A stretch of DNA of 64,000 nucleotides, from contig CAWDVE010000017.1 in assembly GCA_963805625.1 (NCBI GenBank), positions 192,001-256,000 on the forward strand. The letters run 5' to 3'. This document shows positions 9,986 through 45,099 of the stretch, in pieces; position 1 is the stretch's first letter, and every line of letters begins with the position of its first letter. A model generated the notes under the pieces. That model was given only the letters and a program-made list of their open reading frames with translations. It had not been told where the DNA came from and did not search any database. The DNA is from an uncultured Candidatus Rokubacteria bacterium. Lineage in GTDB: Bacteria; Methylomirabilota; Methylomirabilia; Rokubacteriales; DASRDR01. Both the position numbers and the translations under genes were made by a program.

Positions 9986-10019
9986 CCGGCTGGCCCCCGA
10001 CCGCGGACGTGCCCAGCTG

Positions 10020-11189
10020 ATGGCGGCGACCCTGCCGGGGTCGCTCGCGGCGGTCCTCCGCCCGCTCCTGCCGCTCTTCGTCGTCGACGTCCTCACGGCC
10101 TTCACCGTCGGAATGGTGCCGCCGCTCCTGCCGCTGCTCGCCGACGAGTGGCAGCTGTCGCCGCTCCAGGCCGGGCTCATCAACACGGTCTACGCGCTTG
10201 GCCGCCTCGGGACCAGCTATCCGGCAAGCACGCTGCGCGCCCGTCACGGCACGCGTCGGGTGGTCTTCCTCGGCCTCGCGCTCCTGGTGACGAGCGTGGT
10301 GGCCTGCGGGCTGGCGCCGGTGTTCCTCGCCTTCCTGCTGGCCCGCCTGGTCATGGGCGTTGGGGCTTCGGCCGCGTTCCTCGCGATCTTCGCCGAGCTC
10401 CTCGAGACCGCGCCGGCCGCGTGGCGGGGCCGGCTCACGAACCTGTTCGAGGGCATGGCGATCCTGAGCCTCGGGATCGGGAGCACGCTGGGGGCCTGGG
10501 TCGCAGGCCAGGTGGGCTGGCGGTGGGTGTTCGTGGGCGCGGGGCCGGTGCTCCTCCTCTGCGGTCTCGTGTGGCGCGCGCTCGGGGCCGCGGCTGGCCG
10601 TCACGTGGTCGAGGCCGCGGTGGCGGATCAGCCGGACCGGCGCCTCGCCCATCGCCGCCTCCTGCCCGTGTACACTGCGAGCCTTAGCCTGTCGATGACG
10701 TGGGCCGGCCTCTTCGCGACGATGGCGCCGCTCCTCGGTCACGCGCGGTACGGGCTCGGCTCCGGCCCCCTCGGCCTCGCGCTCAGCGCCGGGTACGCGG
10801 CGGAGCTGGCCGGGCTCCTCGGGGTCGGGCTCGTCATCGATCGGATCCGCCGGGAGCCCATCTTCTTCGTAGGGGCGGGGGCGGTGGCAGCTGGCGGCCT
10901 GGTCCTGGCGGCCGGCACGCATCCCGCCGTCTTCGTCCTCGGGCTCGTCCTGGTCGGCGGCGGGTTCGCGGTCTGGATGGTGCCGGCTATCGTGCTGGCC
11001 GACCGCGTGGGCACCCCCATGCCCCCGGGTTACTTCGCCGTCTACCGGATCGCCATGGACGCGGGGATGATCGTCGGGCCGCTCGCGCTCGGCGCCGTGG
11101 CCGATCTCCTCGGCGCTCGTGCGGCCGTCGGGAGCGCCGGGTTCGCGCTAGTCGCCGGGGCGGTAGCGCTCACGCTCGGGCGGCGCTGA
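10020..11189 (+). CDS. MFS transporter
   Basis: About 12 hydrophobic segments and a DRIRR loop motif. Confidence 0.85.
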   Translation: MAATLPGSLAAVLRPLLPLFVVDVLTAFTVGMVPPLLPLLADEWQLSPLQAGLINTVYALGRLGTSYPASTLRARHGTRRVVFLGLALLVTSVVACGLAPVFLAFLLARLVMGVGASAAFLAIFAELLETAPAAWRGRLTNLFEGMAILSLGIGSTLGAWVAGQVGWRWVFVGAGPVLLLCGLVWRALGAAAGRHVVEAAVADQPDRRLAHRRLLPVYTASLSLSMTWAGLFATMAPLLGHARYGLGSGPLGLALSAGYAAELAGLLGVGLVIDRIRREPIFFVGAGAVAAGGLVLAAGTHPAVFVLGLVLVGGGFAVWMVPAIVLADRVGTPMPPGYFAVYRIAMDAGMIVGPLALGAVADLLGARAAVGSAGFALVAGAVALTLGRR

Positions 11190-11212: not shown

Positions 11213-11806
11213 GTGAAGGCCGGTCTCGTCGTCCTCGCGGTCGTCGCGCTCGCGGTCATCGTCGCCCTCGGATGGTTCGTCTCGATCAGCAACGATCTCG
11301 TCGCGCGCGAGCAGGCGGTCCACGAGGCGTGGGCGCAGGTCCAGAACGTCTACCAGCGCCGGGCCGACCTGATCCCGAACCTCGTGGAGACCGTCAAGGG
11401 CTTCGCCGCCCAGGAACGGGCCGTCCTGGAGGAGGTCACCCGCGCCCGCGCGAGCGTGGCGGGGATGCAGGTCACGCCCGAGATCCTGCGGGACCCGGAG
11501 GCGCTCCGGAAGTTCCAGGAGGCGCAGGCCCAGCTGGGCGGTGCGCTCGGCCGACTGCTGGCCGTCGTCGAGCGCTATCCCGACCTCAAATCGAACCAGA
11601 ACTTCCTGGCGCTGCAGAGCCAGCTCGAGGGGACCGAGAACCGAATCGCGGTCGAGCGCCGCCGCTACAACGAGGCCGTGCGCGAGTACAACACCGCGAT
11701 CCGGCGCTTCCCGGGGAGCCTGGTCGCCTCGCTCCGAGGCTTCCCGGAGCGGCCCTACTTCGAGGCGACGCCCGGCAGCGAGGTGCCCCCGGCGATCAAG
11801 TTCTGA
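11213..11806 (+). CDS. lemA: LemA family protein
   Basis: N-terminal TM; motifs YQRRADLIPNLV, ERYPDLKSNQNF and LEGTENRIAVERRRYNE. Confidence 0.93.
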   Translation: MKAGLVVLAVVALAVIVALGWFVSISNDLVAREQAVHEAWAQVQNVYQRRADLIPNLVETVKGFAAQERAVLEEVTRARASVAGMQVTPEILRDPEALRKFQEAQAQLGGALGRLLAVVERYPDLKSNQNFLALQSQLEGTENRIAVERRRYNEAVREYNTAIRRFPGSLVASLRGFPERPYFEATPGSEVPPAIKF

Positions 11807-11912: not shown

Positions 11913-13817
11913 ATGAAACCCCGCATCCGTCAGCAAGCTCGGTTCTCCGCCCTCTACATCGCGGGCGCGGTGATCGTGCTGATCTTCCTCCAGAGCTGGC
12001 TGCTCACACCCCAGGCTCAGGAGATCCCCATCAGCCGGCTGGTGGAGTGGGTCCGCGAGGACCGGGTCGCCCGCGTCTCCTTCGGCGAGCGGGAGATCCG
12101 GGGCGTCCTCAAGGAGCCGATCCCCGATGCGCCGGTCCCGGCACCCCAGTGGCTTGCTCGCCTCACCGGATGGACGCCGGGGGTCCTGTTCGCCACCGTG
12201 CGCATTCCCGGTGCCGACGACGCGGCGCTCTTGCGCGAGCTCGAGGCCCACAAGGTCGAGTTCTCGGGCCGGATCGAGTCCACCCTGGTCCGGGATCTGA
12301 TCTTCGGCTGGCTCCTGCCGATCGGCGTGATGGCGGGGATCTGGATCTTCCTCATGCGGCGCATGGGCGGCGGGCCGACCCAGGCGCTCACGTTCGGGCG
12401 CTCCAAGGTCAAGATCTACGACCGCAAGGAGCTCAAGACGACCTTCGCCGACGTTGCCGGCGTCGACGAGGCGAGGGCGGAGCTCGTGGAGGTCGTCGAC
12501 TTCCTGCGCAACCCGCAGAAGTACCAGCGGCTGGGCGGCCGCATTCCGAAGGGCGTCCTGATCGTCGGGCCGCCGGGCAGCGGCAAGACGCTCCTCGCCC
12601 GCGCGGTGGCGGGCGAGGCCGACGTGCCGTTCTTCTTCCTGTCGGGCTCGGAGTTCGTCGAGATGTTCGTCGGCGTCGGGGCGGCCCGCGTGCGGGACCT
12701 CTTCGAGCAGGCCAAGGAGAAGGCGCCTTGCATCGTCTTCATCGACGAGCTGGACGCCATCGGCAAGAGCCGCGCCGGCGCGACTGGCTTCGTCGGGGGC
12801 CACGACGAGCGTGAGCAGACGCTCAACCAACTCCTGGTCGAGATGGATGGGTTCGACTCCTCCAAGGGCGTCATCATCATGGCGGCCACGAACCGGCCCG
12901 AGGTCCTGGACGCGGCGCTCCTCCGGGCCGGGCGCTTCGACCGTCAGGTGGTTGTGGATCGGCCGGACGTCCGCGGCCGGGAGGCGATCCTGCGGGTCCA
13001 CGCGCGCCACGTCCGGCTCGCCCCGGAGGTGAGCCTCCAGGTCATCGCGGCACGGACCCCGGGATTCGCGGGGGCGGACCTCGCGAACATCCTGAACGAG
13101 GCGGCCCTCCTGGCCGCCCGTAAGGGCAAGGAGTCCGTCGAGCAGGCGGACCTCGAGGAGGCGATCGACCGCGTGGTCGCAGGGATGGAGCGCCGGAGCC
13201 GCGTGCTCTCCGAGACCGAGCGTGACATCGTCGCGCATCACGAGATGGGTCACGCGCTCGTGGCGTCCTCGGTGCCCCACGCCGATCCCGTGCACAAGGT
13301 GTCGATCATCCCACGCGGTGTGGCGGCGCTCGGCATCACCTACCAGCTGCCCACGGAGGACCGGTACATCCTGCGCCAGAGCGAGCTCGAGGACCGGATC
13401 GCTGTGATGCTCGGCGGCCACGCGGCGGAGGAGCTCGTGTATGGCGAGCTTTCCACCGGGGCGCACAACGACCTCGAGCGGGCCGCGGCGGTGGCCCGGG
13501 CGATGGTCATGCGGTACGGGATGTCGCAGCGGCTCGGCCCGCTCACCTTCGGCGGGGATGGCGGCCCGGGCTTCCTGCGCCGGAACGGTTCCGGCTGGGA
13601 GGGGGGCGAGCGGGAGTACAGCGAGGAGACCGCCCGCGCGATTGACGAGGAGGTCCGGCGCATCGTCGACCAGACGTACGAGCGGGTTCGTGCGATCCTC
13701 GGAGCCAAGAAGGACGTTCTGCTCCGTGCCGCCGAGGTGCTGAAGGTGCGCGAGACGCTCGAGGGCGACGAGCTCCGGCGGCTGCTCGCCGGGGACCCGG
13801 TCCCCGCCGGCGCCTGA
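11913..13817 (+). CDS. ftsH: ATP-dependent zinc metalloprotease FtsH
   Basis: Two TMs, Walker A GPPGSGKT, Walker [22 protein letters not shown] and HEMGH. Confidence 0.97.
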
Positions 13818-13834
13818 CCAGGCGGCGCCGCGCC

Positions 13835-13843
13835 TGCTAGAAT
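13835..13843 (+). promoter_or_regulatory. Extended -10 promoter (TGC-TAGAAT), probably leaderless
   Basis: Lies 6 nt upstream of the GTG at 13850; no SD sequence. Confidence 0.6.
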
Positions 13844-13849
13844 TCCTCC

Positions 13850-14917
13850 GTGGCCGTCACCTACAAGGACTACTATAAGACCCTCGGCGTCCCGAAGACC
13901 GCTGACGCCAAGGCGATCAAGCAGGCCTACCGGAAGCTCGCGCGCAAGTACCATCCGGACCAGAACCCGGGCAACACCGCCGCCGCCGATCGCTTCAAGG
14001 AGATCAACGAGGCCAACGAGGTCCTCTCCGATCCGGAGAAGCGTCAGCGGTACGACACGCTGGGCCCGGACTGGGCCCGCTACGCGGAGGCGGGCGCCGG
14101 CGGGTTTGGCGTGCGGCCGGGCGGCCCGGGCGGACCCGGCCCGGGCGGTTACCGGGTTCACGTCGATGAGTCGGGTGGCCTCGGCGACTTCTCGGAGTTC
14201 TTCCGCACGATCTTCGGGGATCTCGGCACCCGCGGGCGCCCGTTCGAGGGCGTCGAGTTCGAGGAGCGCGATCCGTTCCGCGGTGGGGGGCGCGGGCGGC
14301 GGGGTGGCGACCTCGAGGCCGAGGTCGAGATCACTCTGGAAGAAGCCCATGCCGGGGCCCGGCGGACCGTCGAGTTCCAGCAGCTCGAGCCATGCGGCAC
14401 GTGCCACGGCACGGGACGCCAGGGCAAAGGGACATGCTCGACGTGCGGCGGCTCTGGCCAGATGCCTCGCAGCTACCGGGTCGAGGTGAAGATCCCCGCC
14501 GGTGTTCGGGACGGCTCGCGGGTCCGTGCCGCGGGCGAGGGTGGGGCCGGTACGGGCGGGGGGATCCGCGGGGATCTCTATCTTCGCGTGCATGTGACGC
14601 CGCACCCCCTCTTCGAGCGCCGCGAGGACGATCTCCACGTCGAGCTGCCGATCGGCGTCTGGGAGGCCGCGCTCGGCGCCGAGGTCGAGGTGCCCACGCT
14701 CCGCGGCAAGGTCTCGATGAAGATTCCGCCCGAGACGAGCAGCGGGCGGACGTTCCGGCTCCCGGGCTACGGCCTCCCGCACGTGAAGGGTGGCGGGCGG
14801 GGCGATCAGTTCATCCGCGTCCGTATCGCAATGCCCCGCGACCTCACGGCCGCCGAGCGCGCCCTCTTCGAGCAGCTCCGGAGCCTTCGCCCCGCGCCTC
14901 CGCGCGAGACCGCCTGA
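13850..14917 (+). CDS. DnaJ-class co-chaperone (J domain, G/F region, shortened Zn finger, DnaJ_C)
   Basis: KDYY and HPD motifs; only two CxxCxGxG repeats; VKIPAGV...GDLY. Confidence 0.92.
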   Translation: MAVTYKDYYKTLGVPKTADAKAIKQAYRKLARKYHPDQNPGNTAAADRFKEINEANEVLSDPEKRQRYDTLGPDWARYAEAGAGGFGVRPGGPGGPGPGGYRVHVDESGGLGDFSEFFRTIFGDLGTRGRPFEGVEFEERDPFRGGGRGRRGGDLEAEVEITLEEAHAGARRTVEFQQLEPCGTCHGTGRQGKGTCSTCGGSGQMPRSYRVEVKIPAGVRDGSRVRAAGEGGAGTGGGIRGDLYLRVHVTPHPLFERREDDLHVELPIGVWEAALGAEVEVPTLRGKVSMKIPPETSSGRTFRLPGYGLPHVKGGGRGDQFIRVRIAMPRDLTAAERALFEQLRSLRPAPPRETA

Positions 14918-14981
14918 AGCATCGGGCATGTCTGGCCACAGGGCGATCCGCCCGACTGGCTGTCCGTTGGTTGACGGCTTT

Positions 14982-15045
14982 TTGACAGTGTCCGGGGGCC
15001 TGCTAGACTCCTCACTGATCCCGCGTGACGCATGGCGCGGGATCA
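14982..15045 (+). promoter_or_regulatory. clpB promoter plus a perfect 10-bp inverted repeat in the 5' leader
   Basis: TTGACA-N16-TAGACT; TGATCCCGCG (15016-25) N10 CGCGGGATCA (15036-45). Confidence 0.6.
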
Positions 15046-15068
15046 TTTGTTAAGGGCAAGGAGGGCGC

Positions 15069-17672
<2,604 letters not shown>

Positions 17673-17693: not shown

Positions 17694-17780
17694 TGAGCCC
17701 ACCGGCTGCCACAGATCGAAGACCGTCCGATCGAAACGTCCGATCAGCTCCCACGCAGCCCGGGTAGCCCAGTGAGCGAG
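17694..17780 (+). repeat. Dispersed ~87-bp repeat, copy A
   Basis: Aligns by hand with 29555-29642 at about 67/88 positions. Confidence 0.7.
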
Positions 17781-18505
17781 GGTCCGGTCCCGAGCGTGGC
17801 GCCGGGCGCCCGCTCGACGGGGCGGCTGGCCGCGGGCGCGGGCTGGCAGGGCACGGGGTACGTGAGGCGGCGGCCCTGGGGGGCGTAAGGCTGCCCTGAC
17901 ACGAAGCACGGGTTGGCCGCGATCCAGTGGCGGGTCGGATCCTCCCAGCCCCCGTCGATCCACTCCCCGCAGAGTCCCCCCTCGCGCCGGCAGACCCCGA
18001 AGTGTAGGTGCGGCGCCGTCGCGTTGCCGGTCGCGCCGACCCGTCCGATGACCTCACCCCGCCGCACGACCTGGCCACCCACGACCTCCACCGCCGAGAG
18101 GTGGTAGTACGCCGTCGTGAGATCGACGTCGTGCTCGATCACGATGAGTCGCCCGGCGAAGGCCTGGAAGCCGGTCCGGAGCACCACCCCGTCAGCGGCG
18201 GCCAGCAGCGGCGTCCCTGTCGTCGCCCGGATGTCGATCCCCGCGTGACGCGTCGGGGTCGCCGCGCCGCCCTCGCCGCGCCACTCCCCGAACCGCGAGA
18301 TGATCGGGGGCGGCACCAGGGCGAGGAGGCCGGGAGTCTCGGGAGGCGGCGGTAGCAGCGCCGGCCGTGGCGGCTCGACGGCGCAGCCCGTCACCGACAG
18401 GAGGAGCAGGAGGATCCGCCCGCCGCGTGTGAGGCATCGGAGGGGCCGGGCTGCCGGGGCCCGCCGCGTCCGGCGGCGCCAGTCGGGCGGGGTCGCGCCT
18501 CTCAC
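17744..18505 (-). CDS. M23 family metallopeptidase, probable lipoprotein
   Basis: Motifs HAGIDI, YYHL and TGNATAPHLHF; lipobox-like LLLSVTGC. Start taken at the GTGA overlap with the ggt stop (uncertain). Confidence 0.85.
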   Translation of the reverse strand: MRGATPPDWRRRTRRAPAARPLRCLTRGGRILLLLLSVTGCAVEPPRPALLPPPPETPGLLALVPPPIISRFGEWRGEGGAATPTRHAGIDIRATTGTPLLAAADGVVLRTGFQAFAGRLIVIEHDVDLTTAYYHLSAVEVVGGQVVRRGEVIGRVGATGNATAPHLHFGVCRREGGLCGEWIDGGWEDPTRHWIAANPCFVSGQPYAPQGRRLTYPVPCQPAPAASRPVERAPGATLGTGPSLTGLPGLRGS

Positions 18506-20319
18506 CACGCCACCGCGTAGGAGTCGCGGCGCGGGTCGGCCGCGCCCCAGCGGATCCCGGCGTCGTCGACTCGCGCCAGACACACGCCACCGGCGCGCCA
18601 TTCCCAGTCCCTCCAGCGCTCGACCTCGTGACCGCGGGCGCGCAGCGCCGCGGCGGTGGCCTCCGGGAGGCGACCCTCGAGGGTGACGCGGCCCGGGAAG
18701 TAGCGGTGGGGCCAGAACGAGTCCGGGAACGACTGGGTCGCAAAGCGGGGCGCCTCGACGGCGCGCTGCGGGCTCATGCCGAAGACGACTATGTTGAGAA
18801 GGACCTGGAGCATCGCCTGGAGCTGAACGTCACCACCCGGTGTCCCGAGCGCCATCACGTCCCCGCCGGGTCCCAGAACCAAGGCGGGACTGGGGGTCAG
18901 CCTCGGACGCTTGCCCGGCGCGACGGCGCTCGCGTGCCCGGGCTCGAGCCAGCCCTGGGATCCGCGCGAGGACACGGCGAGCCCCGTGCCGGGAATGACG
19001 GGCGTGTCGGTCGACACGTCACTCGGGGTGGCCGAGAAGGCGTTACCCTCGCGGTCGACCACGGCGGCGTACGAGGTGCCGAGCGTGGCCGGACCGCCGG
19101 CGATGGCCGCGGCGGCGCGGGACCCGGGGCGGGGCGGCGCGCCCGCCGGGGCACCCGGATGCGGCATTGCCGGCCAGGCGCGGTCGGGATCGATGAGACC
19201 ACGGCGCCCGGCCGCGTAGGCCGGGTCGAGGAGGCCGGCTCCGGGCACCTCCACGTGGCGGGGGTCTCCGTAGAAGGCCTCCCGGTCGGCGAACGCGAGC
19301 TTCATCGCCTCCGTGATCGTGTGGACGTAGTCCGGCGTGTTGTGACCGAGCGCGGCGAGATCGATCCCGTCGAGGATCTGGAGCATCTGGAGGAACGCCG
19401 GCCCCTGGCACCAAAACCCGCAGGTGAGGACCTCGCGGGACCCGATCCGGGCCCGCGCCGGCGGCTCCACGCCGACCCGGAATCCGGCGAGATCCTCGCG
19501 CGTGAGGAGCCCGCCCTCGGCTGCGTGGTAGCGCGCGATGGCGGCCGCGACGTCGCCCCGGTAGAAGGCGTTGCGCGCGGCCGTGAGGCCGGCGACCCGA
19601 CCAGCACGGCGGCCGCCCCGGTCCTCGTCGGCCAGGTAGCCGAGGGTGCGGCCGAGGTCGGCCTGGACGAAACGCTCGCCGGCCCGCGGGATCCGCCCGC
19701 CCGGCAGGTAGATCGGCGCCGAGGTGGGCCATCGCCGGTAGGCGTCCGCGTTGGCCTGGATGATCCCGGCGACGAACCGGCCGAGGGGGAAGCCTTCCCG
19801 GGCGAACTCGATCGCCGGCTGGGCGACCTCCGCGAAGCCGAGGGTGCCGAAGCGCTCGAGCGCGGTGATCCAGGCGTCGGGCGCCGCCGGGACGACAGTC
19901 CGGAGGAGGCCGTCGGGCATGTCGCCCTTGCAGTGGTCGCGGAAGTATTCGAGGGTCGCCGCCCGCGGCCACACGCCCAGACCCGAGATCGTCGTCACCT
20001 CGCGACGGCTGGCCTCGTAGACCATGATCGGCGCGACCCCGGCGAAGCTGACGATGTCGGAATGGACCACGCCGAGGCAGATCCCGGCCGCCACGCCGGC
20101 GTCGACGGCGTTTCCCCCCGCCTCGAGGATGCGGTGTGCCGCGAGGGCCGCCAGCGGGTGGCCTGCGGCGACCGCGTGGTGCGTGCCGAGGGCGTCTGGG
20201 CGGAGCGCGTGCGCCGCAGCGGCCGGTCCGGTCAGAGTCTCGAGTGGGGCCGCGGCGACGCCCGGATGAGGGGCGCGACCGCTATGCTCGCTCGGAGGCC
20301 GGTACGAGTCGACCGTCAT
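18502..20319 (-). CDS. Gamma-glutamyltransferase family protein
   Basis: GGNAVDAGVA, LAFADRE, nucleophile Thr in GTSYAAVVD, PGKRPRLT, GTPGGD and GAADPRR. Confidence 0.93.
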   Translation of the reverse strand: MTVDSYRPPSEHSGRAPHPGVAAAPLETLTGPAAAAHALRPDALGTHHAVAAGHPLAALAAHRILEAGGNAVDAGVAAGICLGVVHSDIVSFAGVAPIMVYEASRREVTTISGLGVWPRAATLEYFRDHCKGDMPDGLLRTVVPAAPDAWITALERFGTLGFAEVAQPAIEFAREGFPLGRFVAGIIQANADAYRRWPTSAPIYLPGGRIPRAGERFVQADLGRTLGYLADEDRGGRRAGRVAGLTAARNAFYRGDVAAAIARYHAAEGGLLTREDLAGFRVGVEPPARARIGSREVLTCGFWCQGPAFLQMLQILDGIDLAALGHNTPDYVHTITEAMKLAFADREAFYGDPRHVEVPGAGLLDPAYAAGRRGLIDPDRAWPAMPHPGAPAGAPPRPGSRAAAAIAGGPATLGTSYAAVVDREGNAFSATPSDVSTDTPVIPGTGLAVSSRGSQGWLEPGHASAVAPGKRPRLTPSPALVLGPGGDVMALGTPGGDVQLQAMLQVLLNIVVFGMSPQRAVEAPRFATQSFPDSFWPHRYFPGRVTLEGRLPEATAAALRARGHEVERWRDWEWRAGGVCLARVDDAGIRWGAADPRRDSYAVAW

Positions 20320-23729: not shown

Positions 23730-25078
23730 GGCCAGGTGCCACACCATCTCGGTCGGAGAAGAGACGACTCGAGGGAAGGTGCCACCGCATCTCGGTCACT
23801 CGTGGAAGGGCTTGTGGGGAAAGACATAGGGCGCCTCACGCAAGAGAGGCTGCTGATCCGGCGCTCGACGCCGCAGGGCGTAGAAGCGGAGCATCCCGGC
23901 GGTGAGATCCAGCTCGCATCGCACCAGGCGGTGGGGCCAATGGGGCGCGACCTCCAGGGTGCGATTGAGCAGGCGCACCGTCCCCGCGTCCGAAGTGCGT
24001 CGCAGGAACAAGACCTCACCCTGCAGGCGGGCTTGCAGATCGGCCTGCCAGGCGACGGGGAACGGGCGGCGCGGCGGGGCGGCCTCGATCCGCGCGGCCG
24101 CCCGCTGATGGTAGGCGCGGATGTACCGGTCGGAGCGCTCCTGCAGGGCGGCCAGCGATTCGTGATGGAATCGGGTCCAGACCTTGGCCTGCCAGCGGCC
24201 GTTGAAGTTCTCGATGGCGGCTTGGAAGCCACTTTCCTGGGGTGGGGCGAAGACCGGGCGGACGCCCAGGCGCAGGCACGTGCGGACGACGCGACCCAGC
24301 GCATCGGGCCAGCGGTGCGTCCCGGTGAAGATGCTGTCATTGTCAAATTGGGCGTATGCCGGCAGGCCCCATGTGCGCCAGTGCGCGACGAGCGCCGCCA
24401 CCGCGGTGCTCGCCGTCACGAGCGGCTGCGGCCAGGCCCCGGGCAATCCCCCATACAAGGACACGACGGTCAGGACCTCCAGCTGCAGCCCCCCGGTGAG
24501 CGCCAAGCCCTCTACAATGTCGAAGCTGTCGAGCTCCCCCCGTCCCGGGGTGCCCGGGAGGTACCAGCCGGGGCGGGGCGGGGGCCGACGCAGCCGGCGA
24601 ACACGATCCAGGACCCCCCGGCGGTACAGAATCCGGCCGATGGTGCGCACGGACGGCACGGCCGTCGCCGGCCGACGCGCCGCGAAGGCGCGGTGGATGG
24701 CCCGGGCGCCATACTCGCCCAGATCGCTGGTCGTCCTCAGGTCGTGCCGCAAGGTCATCACCAGCTGCTCCACCGCCTCGGGGATCCGGTGGATGCGCTT
24801 GGCCACCCGTGGCTGATCGCTCCAGTCCACGTCGTCCAGGGCCTGCGCCCCGGCCCGGCGGTGCCACCACTGCACCGTGGACAGGCTCACTCCATGGGCG
24901 CGCGCCACCGCCCGCATAGAGGCCCCGGCCCGGACCTTCGCCACCAGCGTTCGCCGCGTCGCCTCTCGTCGCCGCCCCTTTTCGCCATGGCTCCCCCTCG
25001 CTCACAGGCTTTACTCCAGTATCACCGTGACCGAGATGCGCTGGCACCTAACCGACCGAGATGGTGTGGCACCTGGCC
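23730..25078. mobile_element. Complete insertion sequence (~1349 bp), IS481-like
   Basis: 27-bp perfect terminal IR (GGCCAGGTGCCACACCATCTCGGTCGG), a second sub-terminal repeat at each end, and flanking direct repeat CATGAGG (23723-29 and 25079-85). Confidence 0.9.
23796..24944 (-). CDS. DDE transposase/integrase (HTH + rve-like core), IS481-like
   Basis: HTH SMRAVARAHGVSLSTVQWW; PSVRTIGRIL; D in SFDIV, D in QFDNDSIF, E in AIENFNG. Confidence 0.88.
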   Translation of the reverse strand: MAKVRAGASMRAVARAHGVSLSTVQWWHRRAGAQALDDVDWSDQPRVAKRIHRIPEAVEQLVMTLRHDLRTTSDLGEYGARAIHRAFAARRPATAVPSVRTIGRILYRRGVLDRVRRLRRPPPRPGWYLPGTPGRGELDSFDIVEGLALTGGLQLEVLTVVSLYGGLPGAWPQPLVTASTAVAALVAHWRTWGLPAYAQFDNDSIFTGTHRWPDALGRVVRTCLRLGVRPVFAPPQESGFQAAIENFNGRWQAKVWTRFHHESLAALQERSDRYIRAYHQRAAARIEAAPPRRPFPVAWQADLQARLQGEVLFLRRTSDAGTVRLLNRTLEVAPHWPHRLVRCELDLTAGMLRFYALRRRAPDQQPLLREAPYVFPHKPFHE

Positions 25079-40628: not shown

Positions 40629-41078
40629 TCAGGTGGGTTTCTCGCCGGCGGCGACGCGCGCCCGACCCAGGAGATTGACCACGATGCGACGGGTTTCCCC
40701 GCCGCTCCGGATCGTGATCGTCCCGGCGGGCACCGCGAAGCCCTTCGACGAGAACTGGATCGTGACGTTGCTCGTGGCGACCGCCCCGTCCACGAGGCGA
40801 TGAGGTCCCTCAACCGTCTGGGCGTCGCCGCCGGGATCGGCGACGATCCGGAAGCCCCGCCCGTCGGGTTCGAGGACGAGCGCGTGGGTCACGTCCTGGG
40901 CGCGCGCGCGAGCCCTCGTAAGGTGGACCGCCGCGTAGAGGTCGGCGGTCGCCCCGCCCGCCCGGTATCCCTCGAGGGCCGCGCCCACCGTGGGGACGGC
41001 GGCGCCCATCAGGATCCCCAGTACCAGCAGGACGACGACGACCTCGACCAGCGTGACCCCGCACTGCCCACCTCGCAT
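40629..41078 (-). CDS. GspH/FimT family type IV minor pilin
   Basis: Prepilin cleavage motif G|VTLVE, hydrophobic helix, IQFSSKG and C-terminal GRAR; AGGAGG RBS. Confidence 0.85.
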   Translation of the reverse strand: MRGGQCGVTLVEVVVVLLVLGILMGAAVPTVGAALEGYRAGGATADLYAAVHLTRARARAQDVTHALVLEPDGRGFRIVADPGGDAQTVEGPHRLVDGAVATSNVTIQFSSKGFAVPAGTITIRSGGETRRIVVNLLGRARVAAGEKPT

Positions 41079-41101
41079 GGCGACCTCCTGCCGATTCACG
41101 G

Positions 41102-42920: not shown

Positions 42921-43095
42921 GACGGCGAGTGTAGCACGCGCGTTCGCGCCGCTCGCCGGGCGGCCGCCGTCACGTCACCCGGAAGAGAATCGCGGCGTTC
43001 CCCCGCGGGATGCGGGTGCGGTCGGCCGGGTGGAGGCCGAGGCGCTCGAGAGTGCGGCGCGGGCCGCACAGCCCCGGCGGCGGCCAGGGTGGAGA

Positions 43096-44115
43096 CTAAC
43101 CGGCGAGAGACTCCCAGTCGCCCTCGGAGGCGTCGAGCGCGAGCGCGAGGCTTCCATTGGAGCCGGCGAAGACCGGGTCCTCCACCACGCGCACGGCGCC
43201 GCCGCCGTAGTCGGCGAGGGCCCGCTCCATGGCGGCGGCCAGGCCCGGAACCTGCGACCCGCCTCCCGCCAGGATGATGTTGTGGCGGACGCGCTCCTGG
43301 TACTCGGGCTCCACTCGCGCCAGGAGATCCGCCATCGTCTCCGTGACGGGCGCTACCAGGCTCTCGCACGCGCGGCGCATCTCGCTCGTGATGTCGATCT
43401 GCGTGGCCTTGGCGGCTTTCTGGACGGTGACGACGACGGGCCCCGGAGGCTCGCCGACGAAGCTCCACTTCTCCTTCCACTCCCGGACCATGTAGATGGA
43501 GAACTGGGCGTCGGGGTGCTTGGTCCGGACGAGCGTCATCAGCTGCTCGTCCACCGAATCCCCGGCGTTCGTGAGCGTCCGCTGATCTTCCTCGGTGGGG
43601 TAGCGGCCCCGCATGACGCAGAAGTCGGTCGTCCCGGCGCCGATGTCGACGATCATCGTGTGGAGCAGCGCGTCCATCCCGTAGGACACGGCGAACGGCT
43701 CGGACACGATCATCAGGGCGTCGGCAACCCCTTTGACGGCGTTCCGCAGGTTCTGCCGGCTCACGCGGAGCGCTTCCGCGGGCACGCCCACGACCGCGCG
43801 GATCGGCTGGCCCTCGCGCCCGCCGGCCAGCGAGATCAGGTGCCGCAGGAGCTCGCGCACCGCCAGCTCGTCCTGCTCCGATCCCTCCTTGATCAGGCCC
43901 CGCTCGAGGGGGCGGCGCAGATCGAGCATCGGCCGGCTGTCGAGGGCCTCCCGGCCGAAGAGGATGGGCTTCTTCACGAGGCGTCGGGCCACCATGTCAA
44001 CCGGCCACCCGACGTAGCTCTCGACCACGTGGCGGCCGCCGTTCGAGGCGGAGATCGAGCTGCGGGAGGTTCCCAGATCGATGCCGACGTGAAGGACATC
44101 GGTCTTCTTGGTCAT
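43096..44115 (-). CDS. MamK-family actin-like protein
   Basis: GIDLGTSR, VSEPFAVSYG, VDIGAGTTD, EDQRTLTNAG, KEKWSFVG, PEYQ..NIILAGGGS and DPVFAG..W..L. These match MamK rather than MreB (DLGTAN, EPMAAA, DIGGGTTE). Confidence 0.88.
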   Translation of the reverse strand: MTKKTDVLHVGIDLGTSRSSISASNGGRHVVESYVGWPVDMVARRLVKKPILFGREALDSRPMLDLRRPLERGLIKEGSEQDELAVRELLRHLISLAGGREGQPIRAVVGVPAEALRVSRQNLRNAVKGVADALMIVSEPFAVSYGMDALLHTMIVDIGAGTTDFCVMRGRYPTEEDQRTLTNAGDSVDEQLMTLVRTKHPDAQFSIYMVREWKEKWSFVGEPPGPVVVTVQKAAKATQIDITSEMRRACESLVAPVTETMADLLARVEPEYQERVRHNIILAGGGSQVPGLAAAMERALADYGGGAVRVVEDPVFAGSNGSLALALDASEGDWESLAG

Positions 44116-45099
44116 CTACTGGCTCCCTGGGGCCTGGCCCAGCGTGGCGACGCGGTTGCGAGCCTCCGCGTACGCGTGGATGCCGTGGAAGAGCGCGCGC
44201 GCGATGCGCTGGCGGTAGGCCGGGTCGGCGAGCCGGCCGGCCTCCTCGTCGTTCGACAGGCACGAGACCTCGGCGAGGATGCCGGGGCTCTCCGTGGCGA
44301 CGAGGACCAGGAACGGCGCACTGCGCACCCCCTTGTCCCGGATCGCGGGGTTCGTGTTGCCCAGGACGGTCACCAGCTCCTGCTGGACGACCTGGGCCAG
44401 CTTCCGTGACTCCGCCTGGCGGACATGGGCATACACGCCTTCGAGGAGCCGGCGGAAGTCGGCCAGATGATAGCCCGATTCGTGGTTCTCCTTGCCCGCA
44501 AGCTGTTCGGCGCGCGGGTCGTCGGCCGGGCCGAGATAGTACGTCTCGACGGCGTGGCACTCCCGTGACGGGACCGAGTTGACGTGGATCGACACGAACA
44601 GATCGGCCCGCTCGACGTTGGCCGTCTGAGCCCGCTCCCGGAGGGACACGAAAGTGTCGGCGTCCCGCGTCATGGCGACGTCGTACTTCACGCGCTTGAG
44701 GAGGGCCCGCACCTCCCGGGCGATCTCGAGCGTGATCTCCTTTTCCCACACGCCCTGGGCCCGGGCGCCGGAGTCGTTCCCGCCGTGTCCCGGATCCAGC
44801 ACGAGCTTCTTGACGCCGAGGGCCGCGGTCACAGGACCGATCGCCTTCGGCGCCCGGAAGGTCAGGACCGTGGGCGCCGTCGCCAGCACGGCCGCGCGGT
44901 CGGGCGCGCTCCCGGACAGGGGGTTGTAGGCGAGGAGCCCGAGCGTCGGGAGGGCGACGAGGAGGGTGGCCTGGATGGCCCCCCGCCGGACCCGGGTGCT
45001 GACGCGGAGCGGCGGCGGCGGGAGCCCGCGAATCGTGTCGACGTTCTCCCGGACGGCCCCCCGGAGGACCCGTCGCTTGAGCCGGTCGGATGGCACCAT
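44116..45099 (-). CDS. N-acetylmuramoyl-L-alanine amidase (Amidase_3) with N-terminal membrane anchor
   Basis: LDPGHGG, EKEITL, MTRDAD, SIHVNS, APFLVL and LAEVSCLSN. Its stop codon directly abuts the actin ATG (TAGATG). Confidence 0.92.
   Translation of the reverse strand: MVPSDRLKRRVLRGAVRENVDTIRGLPPPPLRVSTRVRRGAIQATLLVALPTLGLLAYNPLSGSAPDRAAVLATAPTVLTFRAPKAIGPVTAALGVKKLVLDPGHGGNDSGARAQGVWEKEITLEIAREVRALLKRVKYDVAMTRDADTFVSLRERAQTANVERADLFVSIHVNSVPSRECHAVETYYLGPADDPRAEQLAGKENHESGYHLADFRRLLEGVYAHVRQAESRKLAQVVQQELVTVLGNTNPAIRDKGVRSAPFLVLVATESPGILAEVSCLSNDEEAGRLADPAYRQRIARALFHGIHAYAEARNRVATLGQAPGSQ

Follow-up and report, generated by a model that had tools for sequence, protein, structure and literature searches.

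The gene pair and its products

This analysis concerns a two-gene cassette on the reverse strand of a 64,000-nucleotide (nt) stretch of contig CAWDVE010000017.1 from an uncultured Candidatus Rokubacteria bacterium; the whole stretch is referred to as the window. The first gene encodes an N-acetylmuramoyl-L-alanine amidase (Amidase_3) and the second a MamK-like actin, and together they form a real and widespread actin–amidase module, one that is apparently undescribed. The ATG of the actin (44113–44115) abuts the amidase stop codon TAG (44116–44118) and both frames are open, which bears out the initial annotation of an intact amidase gene directly 5′ of the actin with a 0-nt gap.

The best NCBIfam family for the actin is MamK (NF040964), at 370.8 bits and thus below the cut-off of 400; scores against the BeeR and MreB models are 212.8 bits (cut-off 530) and 65.8 bits (cut-off 293), respectively. 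Its top sequence match in the PDB is MamK 5ljw (263 bits, about 40% identity), and its structural model (predicted local distance difference test, pLDDT, 85.9) is closest in fold to the MamK filament 5ljv, with a template modelling (TM) score of 0.89. The MamK-type motifs named earlier are all present in the translation, and residues D13, G15, T16, E139, D157, G159, G161, E215 and W334 are invariant in 75/75 aligned relatives. Family scores, fold match and phylogeny uphold the earlier view of a MamK-related protein rather than MreB, and the disordered N-terminal extension typical of BeeR is absent. Two members of the same clade exceed the NCBIfam MamK cut-off (425.6 and 431.5 bits), so this cut-off does not track function. 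The actin is neither MreB nor BeeR, nor, in function, a MamK.

Amidase_3 is the sole Pfam domain matched by the amidase (E 6e-47), and its His/Glu/His zinc ligands and catalytic Glu (H105, E119, H172, E277) are invariant in the aligned relatives. The AlphaFold2 model places a helix at residues 4–23 (pLDDT about 63–72), a second helix at 29–56 that includes a hydrophobic segment, and then the catalytic domain; the linker at 53–92 is disordered in the model (pLDDT <50). Asn19 in the N-terminal tail is invariant in 75/75 amidases, whereas the membrane segment and linker vary. A tail motif, whose pattern was composed after the sequences had been seen, occurs in the same register in 75/75 and 24/24 amidases of the two subclades. 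Searched against the genome, the tail profile gave one significant match and no other significant tail-bearing partner.

The E. coli amidases AmiA and AmiC are exported by the twin-arginine translocation (Tat) pathway, and the N-terminus could likewise be a long cleaved export signal, with the actin holding or timing export of the precursor and the mature amidase diffusing in the periplasm like AmiA. A basic, Arg-rich stretch followed by a moderate hydrophobic segment and then small residues would fit such a signal. However, a strict Tat motif was found in 0/75 amidases, the 40-residue region before the hydrophobic segment, with its invariant Asn, is unlike a signal n-region, and the other host amidase, of 564 amino acids (aa), starts with an ordinary short signal-like segment. 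Cleavage of this kind is considered improbable. The best 19-residue Kyte–Doolittle mean is 1.58 in this amidase and at least 1.6 in 68/75 relatives, and a cysteine lies near the hydrophobic segment in just 2/75.

Region 195–223 aligns with the regulatory domain of E. coli AmiA (8c2o), and the model contains helices at 195–206 and 212–219. By hand counting from the alignment, E204, present in 73/75 sequences, corresponds to the AmiA latch Glu167, and L218/L219 (L219 in 74/75) correspond to L184/L185. For AmiA, Glu167 is described as the zinc latch, and L184/L185 lie in the EnvC-binding helix (PMC10268282). Retention of this AmiA-type autoinhibitory latch, as judged from alignment and model, implies that the amidase is likely inactive until an activator binds. 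Five M23/LytM matches were found in the host genome. An M23 peptidase gene lies in the window itself, at 17744–18601 (−), 25 kb from the cassette.

Table 1. Features of the amidase–actin cassette, in window positions.
Feature	Position	Strand	Remarks
Amidase_3 (N-acetylmuramoyl-L-alanine amidase) gene	44116..45099	-	327 aa; N-terminal tail and hydrophobic segment
Amidase conserved N-terminal helix, residues 4–23, invariant Asn19	45031..45090	-	Predicted cytoplasmic and actin-binding
Amidase hydrophobic segment, residues 40–58, after basic stretch	44926..44982	-	Predicted membrane anchor; cleaved signal possible
Amidase variable Ala/Pro-rich linker, residues 59–95	44815..44925	-	Predicted disordered; low conservation
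Amidase catalytic Amidase_3 domain, residues 100–308	44176..44802	-	H105, E119, H172, E277 invariant
Amidase AmiA-type regulatory region, residues 195–223	44431..44517	-	Blocking helix (E204) and interaction helix (L218/L219)
Stop–start junction	44113..44118	-	Gap 0 nt; compatible with translational coupling
MamK-like actin gene	43096..44115	-	339 aa; nucleotide-binding motifs intact; E139 invariant
Actin residues 120–172, predicted tail-binding groove, half 1	43600..43758	-	Complex prediction
Actin residues 325–339 (C-terminal region), predicted groove, half 2	43099..43143	-	Complex prediction

Distribution, phylogeny and genomic context

Conservation of the pair was examined in two samples. 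The first comprised the best 80 of 456 related places in species genomes, with hosts among Rokubacteria, Acidobacteriota, Binatia and deltaproteobacteria; the nearest loci belong to Ca. Rokubacteria/Methylomirabilota, with identity up to 98%. The amidase lies directly upstream of the actin in 78/80 of these loci, the remaining two being interrupted by contig ends, and the gap between the genes is −4 to 25 nt in 72/74 computed loci (the others are one gap of 130 nt and one frameshift artefact). The second, independent sample consisted of 80 metagenome loci retrieved with a distant MamK alignment; 38 of them belong to the amidase-linked clade, and 35 of these carry the amidase; two of the misses are cut by contig ends and the third is locus L158. 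Outside the clade the amidase is found in 0/42 loci, 24 of which have at least 700 nt of upstream sequence. Among 251 Methylomirabilota genomes, moreover, 26 carry the actin, and precisely these 26 carry the amidase subfamily. The adjacency is not chance, and its conservation in other genomes, which the initial annotation had left to be surveyed, is established by these three counts.

The cassette is present in 19/20 other genomes of the host's family and in six scattered genomes of three other families (3/159, 2/21 and 1/15). This patchy joint presence suggests that the pair moves as a unit. One genome of the same genus (G004, 95% complete) lacks both genes, and in another (G014:C15:324375-325393) the actin is split over three frames, probably by sequencing error. 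No relative was found in viral contigs, and a plasmid search with the distant MamK query gave no MamK match.

Trees were built with FastTree on 175 sequences and with IQ-TREE (LG+G4) on 72 of these. Every amidase-linked actin falls in one clade (100/100) with two subclades, inside the MamK radiation, while BeeR and MreB lie outside; L158 was assigned to this clade after the first tree had been seen. Magnetosome-cluster sequences form a separate starred clade (L102, L107, L109) or are scattered on the open backbone (L166, L168, L170 and the putative L131). Given this open backbone, an unsettled bootstrap and the long branch of MreB, no order of events, such as the pair preceding magnetosomes, follows from the trees. 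The earlier suggestion that the pair would bear on what MamK did before magnetosomes is accordingly not sustained: the clade is one branch of a radiation with an open backbone.

Several other MamK-like actins were observed. P0135, P0139, P0140 and their relatives (523–1232 aa) have very long unannotated N-terminal extensions and form a clade sister to L115. P0193 (768 aa) is a putative FtsZ–MamK fusion with both domains above the NCBIfam cut-offs. Outside the amidase clade, four further actins in whose surroundings no mam genes were seen (L147:3253-4038, L167:9122-9913, L171:8952-9899 and L172:2579-3457) are each preceded by a gene without an NCBIfam or Pfam match, and a similar basic helix starts the L147 and L167 products; with these neighbours the actins possibly constitute another actin–partner module. 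At locus L131 (6811-11086) a MamK-like actin lies near another actin, which scores as volactin, and near genes for a MinD/ParA ATPase and coiled-coil proteins; the locus is possibly a deep-branching magnetosome cluster.

The absence of magnetosome genes near the pair, pointed out previously, extends to the whole host genome, which is 99.9% complete (6.3% contamination), carries a single copy of the actin and contains no magnetosome cluster. The queries were 141 open reading frames (ORFs) from nine metagenome loci, with 62 proteins named by NCBIfam; all 141 were searched and results were taken for 7/9 loci. MamI, MamP, MamT, MamS and MamR queries had no match. MamB/M queries matched only scattered CDF transporters at about 25% identity, MamE/O queries reached only HtrA-type protease domains in scattered genes, MamA queries matched only generic, scattered TPR-like genes and MamQ queries only LemA genes. 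Across the phylum, a MamM-like match at E 1e-45 occurs in 5/251 genomes, all without the cassette, a level that four non-magnetotactic controls also reach, and in 0/26 cassette genomes; the MamM cut-off is reached by 0/5 genomes of other phyla. A Magnetochrome (PF18509) search gave no match, but its controls were silent as well and it is uninformative.

These results bear on the possibility that the neighbourhood is incidental and that the protein is a magnetosome MamK, whether genuine or a relic. Its identity of about 40% and TM score of 0.89 to MamK speak for this, as do the two clade members above the MamK cut-off. Against it stand the lack of core mam genes in the genome, the MamM-like counts of 0/26 and 0/5, and the separation of the clade from magnetosome-cluster sequences. 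Such an origin is very improbable, and largely refuted.

One of the LemA-family genes lies in the window (about 11291-11806, +), 32 kb from the pair; MamQ queries match it at 28–34%, Pfam assigns it to LemA, and FtsH, DnaJ and ClpB genes (11913-17672) adjoin it.

The pair sometimes has a third neighbour. In 43/51 Acidobacteriota loci the gene after the actin encodes a bitopic SPOR protein (five of the eight misses are contig-cut), a REC-domain gene follows the actin in nine second-subclade loci, where SPOR is confirmed in L111 and L118, and in L175 a SPOR gene precedes the amidase. The host genome has SPOR genes elsewhere. SPOR domains bind amidase-stripped glycan (PMC6895207), and the repeated recruitment of SPOR genes is therefore an argument for in vivo activity of the amidase on the wall. 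Neighbour clustering had indicated that the cassette consists of two genes alone in all loci; this was rejected because the clustering had overlooked the Acidobacteriota SPOR gene.

The host also possesses mreB, mreC, pbp2 and rodA in one cluster, on a contig other than that of the pair, as well as ftsA and the second, longer amidase; the module thus adds to the MreB and FtsA systems and does not replace them, and the earlier suggestion of an MreB-independent module is not sustained. A link to the polygonal cells of Methylomirabilis, offered earlier as a shape role worth testing, does not hold: the closest loci are Ca. Rokubacteria, and the cassette is present in 0/20 genomes of the family bearing particulate methane monooxygenase (pmoA in 10/20 genomes; one of the 20 is a single-contig assembly).

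Acyl-CoA dehydrogenase genes lie upstream of the pair in the window, and NUDIX and metallo-beta-lactamase-fold genes downstream, beyond which is a lone GspH/prepilin-like gene (40629-41099, −). A 382-aa ORF at 23796-24944 (−) resembles an insertion sequence transposase/integrase by eye. A promoter scan yielded 0 sites; one weak hairpin (42991-43007) lies beyond the end of the actin gene and scores at chance level. No RNA run contained more than 0.12 of the sequence words. RNA-run contigs of relatives, from four runs, cover both genes and two span the junction; a single transcript is not shown by them, and as they may derive from DNA they are not counted as evidence.

Predicted tail–actin complex and proposed mechanism

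Modelling of the amidase N-tail on the actin, proposed in the initial annotation, predicts that the two bind: the complex of the actin with amidase residues 1–40 has an interaction prediction score from aligned errors (ipSAE) of 0.87, against 0.00 for the best of three controls. Agreement between runs covers at least 91% of contacts, and the partner pLDDT is at least 64. In calibration the ipSAE mark was reached by 116/157 solved complexes and by 2/215 mismatched pairs, counts that apply only roughly with custom alignments. The predicted interface comprises amidase residues 4, 7–20, 22–23 and 25; N19 makes the most confident contacts, with actin residues 135–136, and the helix rests on actin residues 141–151, 168–172 and 325–339.

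The groove that receives tail residues 7–25 is taken, given the actin fold, to be the cleft between subdomains IA and IIA, and Y145 and Y172 presumably correspond to Tyr143 and Tyr169 of actin. The IA/IIA groove is a known peptide site, occupied by ParR on ParM, arcadin-2 on crenactin and WH2 on actin (PMC5173319), which makes the predicted pose plausible. In F-actin, Tyr143 and Tyr169 receive the D-loop of the next subunit (PMC7247010). Actin residues R124, R171, Y172, A329 and D333 are near-fixed in the window's subclade and mostly different in other MamK-like proteins. Within the second subclade a smaller residue takes the place of Y172, and the residue at tail position 15 is larger; this single event is only suggestive of co-change between tail and groove.

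It might be argued that the genes are merely co-expressed in one envelope pathway, without contact, and that the predicted complex is a sticky-groove artefact. Two of the 215 mismatched pairs do reach the mark, a pair closely related to a solved complex may pass because the model has memorised it, and groove residues F141, Y145, L150 and G170 are conserved also in MamK-like proteins without an amidase. All three complex controls, however, scored 0.00, and conservation of the tail contrasts with a variable membrane segment and linker; the tail profile gave one significant genome match. An absence of contact is given little credence.

The proposed mechanism runs as follows. The amidase would be bitopic, likely membrane-anchored, with its catalytic domain in the periplasm and its N-terminal helix docked on the MamK-like actin in the cytoplasm. 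The actin would polymerise in an ATP-dependent manner and the polymer would place the amidase, after which a periplasmic activator, probably LytM-type and encoded elsewhere, would free the latch. The amidase would then strip stem peptides locally and leave denuded glycan, a product that the SPOR protein of other lineages would bind. As the AmiA latch is kept and a disordered linker lies between the enzyme and the tail, the most likely function of the actin is to place the amidase, not to activate it. The preferred reading, with a probability of roughly 0.55, is thus that the actin likely forms filaments and uses the tail of the amidase to retain it at selected membrane sites, setting where the wall is cut. 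The module probably has an accessory function in remodelling the wall at particular sites, for local shaping, as a landmark of polarity or to aid cell separation, beside intact MreB and FtsA. A bolder version is tentative and rather doubtful: a horizontally spread cytomotive system in which a dynamic MamK-type filament grips the amidase across the membrane by the groove known from WH2 and ParR peptides and moves or places it, so that a track of denuded glycan is written, which a co-encoded SPOR protein reads in many lineages.

Several observations weigh against the positioning of the amidase by a filament. The pose may derive from solved complexes that the prediction model has memorised, and the complex controls included neither MreB nor magnetosome MamK. 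The groove belongs to the longitudinal filament contact in crenactin and actin (PMC5173319), so a bound tail might cap or sequester instead of riding the filament; this raises the likelihood of a tail that binds filament ends or monomers. The hydrophobic segment of this amidase is modest (1.58) and may be cleaved, and the cassette has no activator gene. Neither the window nor the loci of Rokubacteria, Binatia and deltaproteobacteria have a SPOR or REC neighbour. L158 (actin at 9998-11026) represents a real loss, with no amidase within 21 kb, and since related loci are not independent the conservation counts overstate. The actin carries Glu274 where the non-polymerising mutation A278D of MamK sits; Asp or Glu also occupies this position in 4/8 magnetosome-associated sequences, for which reason Glu274 was judged neutral and dropped as a sign of no polymerisation. 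The gene upstream of the L158 actin encodes an M48 peptidase with TPR repeats.

Binding of the tail could also work in the reverse direction. The amidase (with SPOR where present) would then anchor, cap or nucleate the ends of filaments at a landmark in the wall, in the manner of ParR with ParM, and the filament would have another task such as positioning cargo or marking polarity. The predicted site is the ParR/arcadin-2 groove, which in crenactin is filled by the next filament subunit (PMC5173319). Precedents exist in BacA-LmdC, where the hydrolase also affects localisation of the polymer (PMC10945521), and in Sinorhizobium, where SPOR and an amidase form a polarity landmark (PMC7822825). 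No conserved cargo gene lies near the pair, however, and a role of the amidase as a mere anchor is contradicted by its invariant catalytic residues. The reversed arrangement is judged unlikely.

Significance and comparison with known systems

A large clade of MamK relatives in soil and sediment lineages is paired with a wall enzyme, and some of its members exceed the curated MamK cut-off. MamK is regarded as the actin of magnetosomes, and its gene is employed to mark magnetotactic bacteria (bioRxiv 10.1101/682252). Consisting of two proteins, the pair lends itself directly to testing whether an actin-fold protein holds a peptidoglycan hydrolase, and it makes the cell biology of Rokubacteria and Acidobacteriota that are uncultured more accessible. 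If the filament positions the amidase, the filament plus bitopic-hydrolase design of bactofilin-LmdC would have arisen twice from unrelated parts. On the bolder, cytomotive reading, the module would join MreB and FtsA as the third wall system guided by an actin, one that guides cutting and not synthesis. No description of a MamK-like actin–amidase module was found in open-access papers, a search that did not cover supplements, where MamK trees may include these proteins.

Among actins, MamK of Magnetospirillum (5LJV, 5LJW, 5JYG; NF040964) shares the fold, nucleotide motifs, catalytic Glu and C-terminal Trp. The actin described here differs in forming a separate clade, in scoring below the family cut-off, in lacking magnetosome genes and in having a wall amidase as its fixed partner. 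BeeR of Verrucomicrobiota (PMC11929497; 8R2N) is likewise a MamK-related actin of non-magnetotactic bacteria, but the present protein belongs to another clade, reaches 212.8 bits against the 530 of the BeeR model and is without the disordered N-terminal extension. As in ParM-ParR and crenactin-arcadin-2 (PMC5173319), a short helix would occupy the IA/IIA hydrophobic groove; here the complex is predicted, and the ligand is the tail of a membrane-spanning wall enzyme.

The amidase resembles E. coli AmiA, AmiB and AmiC (PMC10268282), by sequence and model, in its zinc site, its blocking helix with latch Glu and its interaction-helix leucines. It differs from them in having no AMIN match, a long conserved tail, a likely uncleaved anchor and an operon with an actin, in a host that has a separate, longer amidase.

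The closest analogy is BacA-LmdC, in which LmdC, a bitopic M23 endopeptidase, binds the bactofilin BacA through its conserved cytoplasmic N-terminal tail (PMC10945521). Both systems are tightly coupled two-gene operons (overlapping in BacA-LmdC) with a conserved-tail bitopic hydrolase, whose topology is predicted in the present case, and with a role, here a likely one, accessory to core machinery. The polymer here is of the actin fold and not a bactofilin, the enzyme is an Amidase_3 of autoinhibited type and not an M23 peptidase, the tail is a predicted helix and not a beta-hairpin (PMC10945521), and the module is known from sequence and models. By this analogy the actin–amidase module would work like BacA-LmdC while sharing neither component with it.

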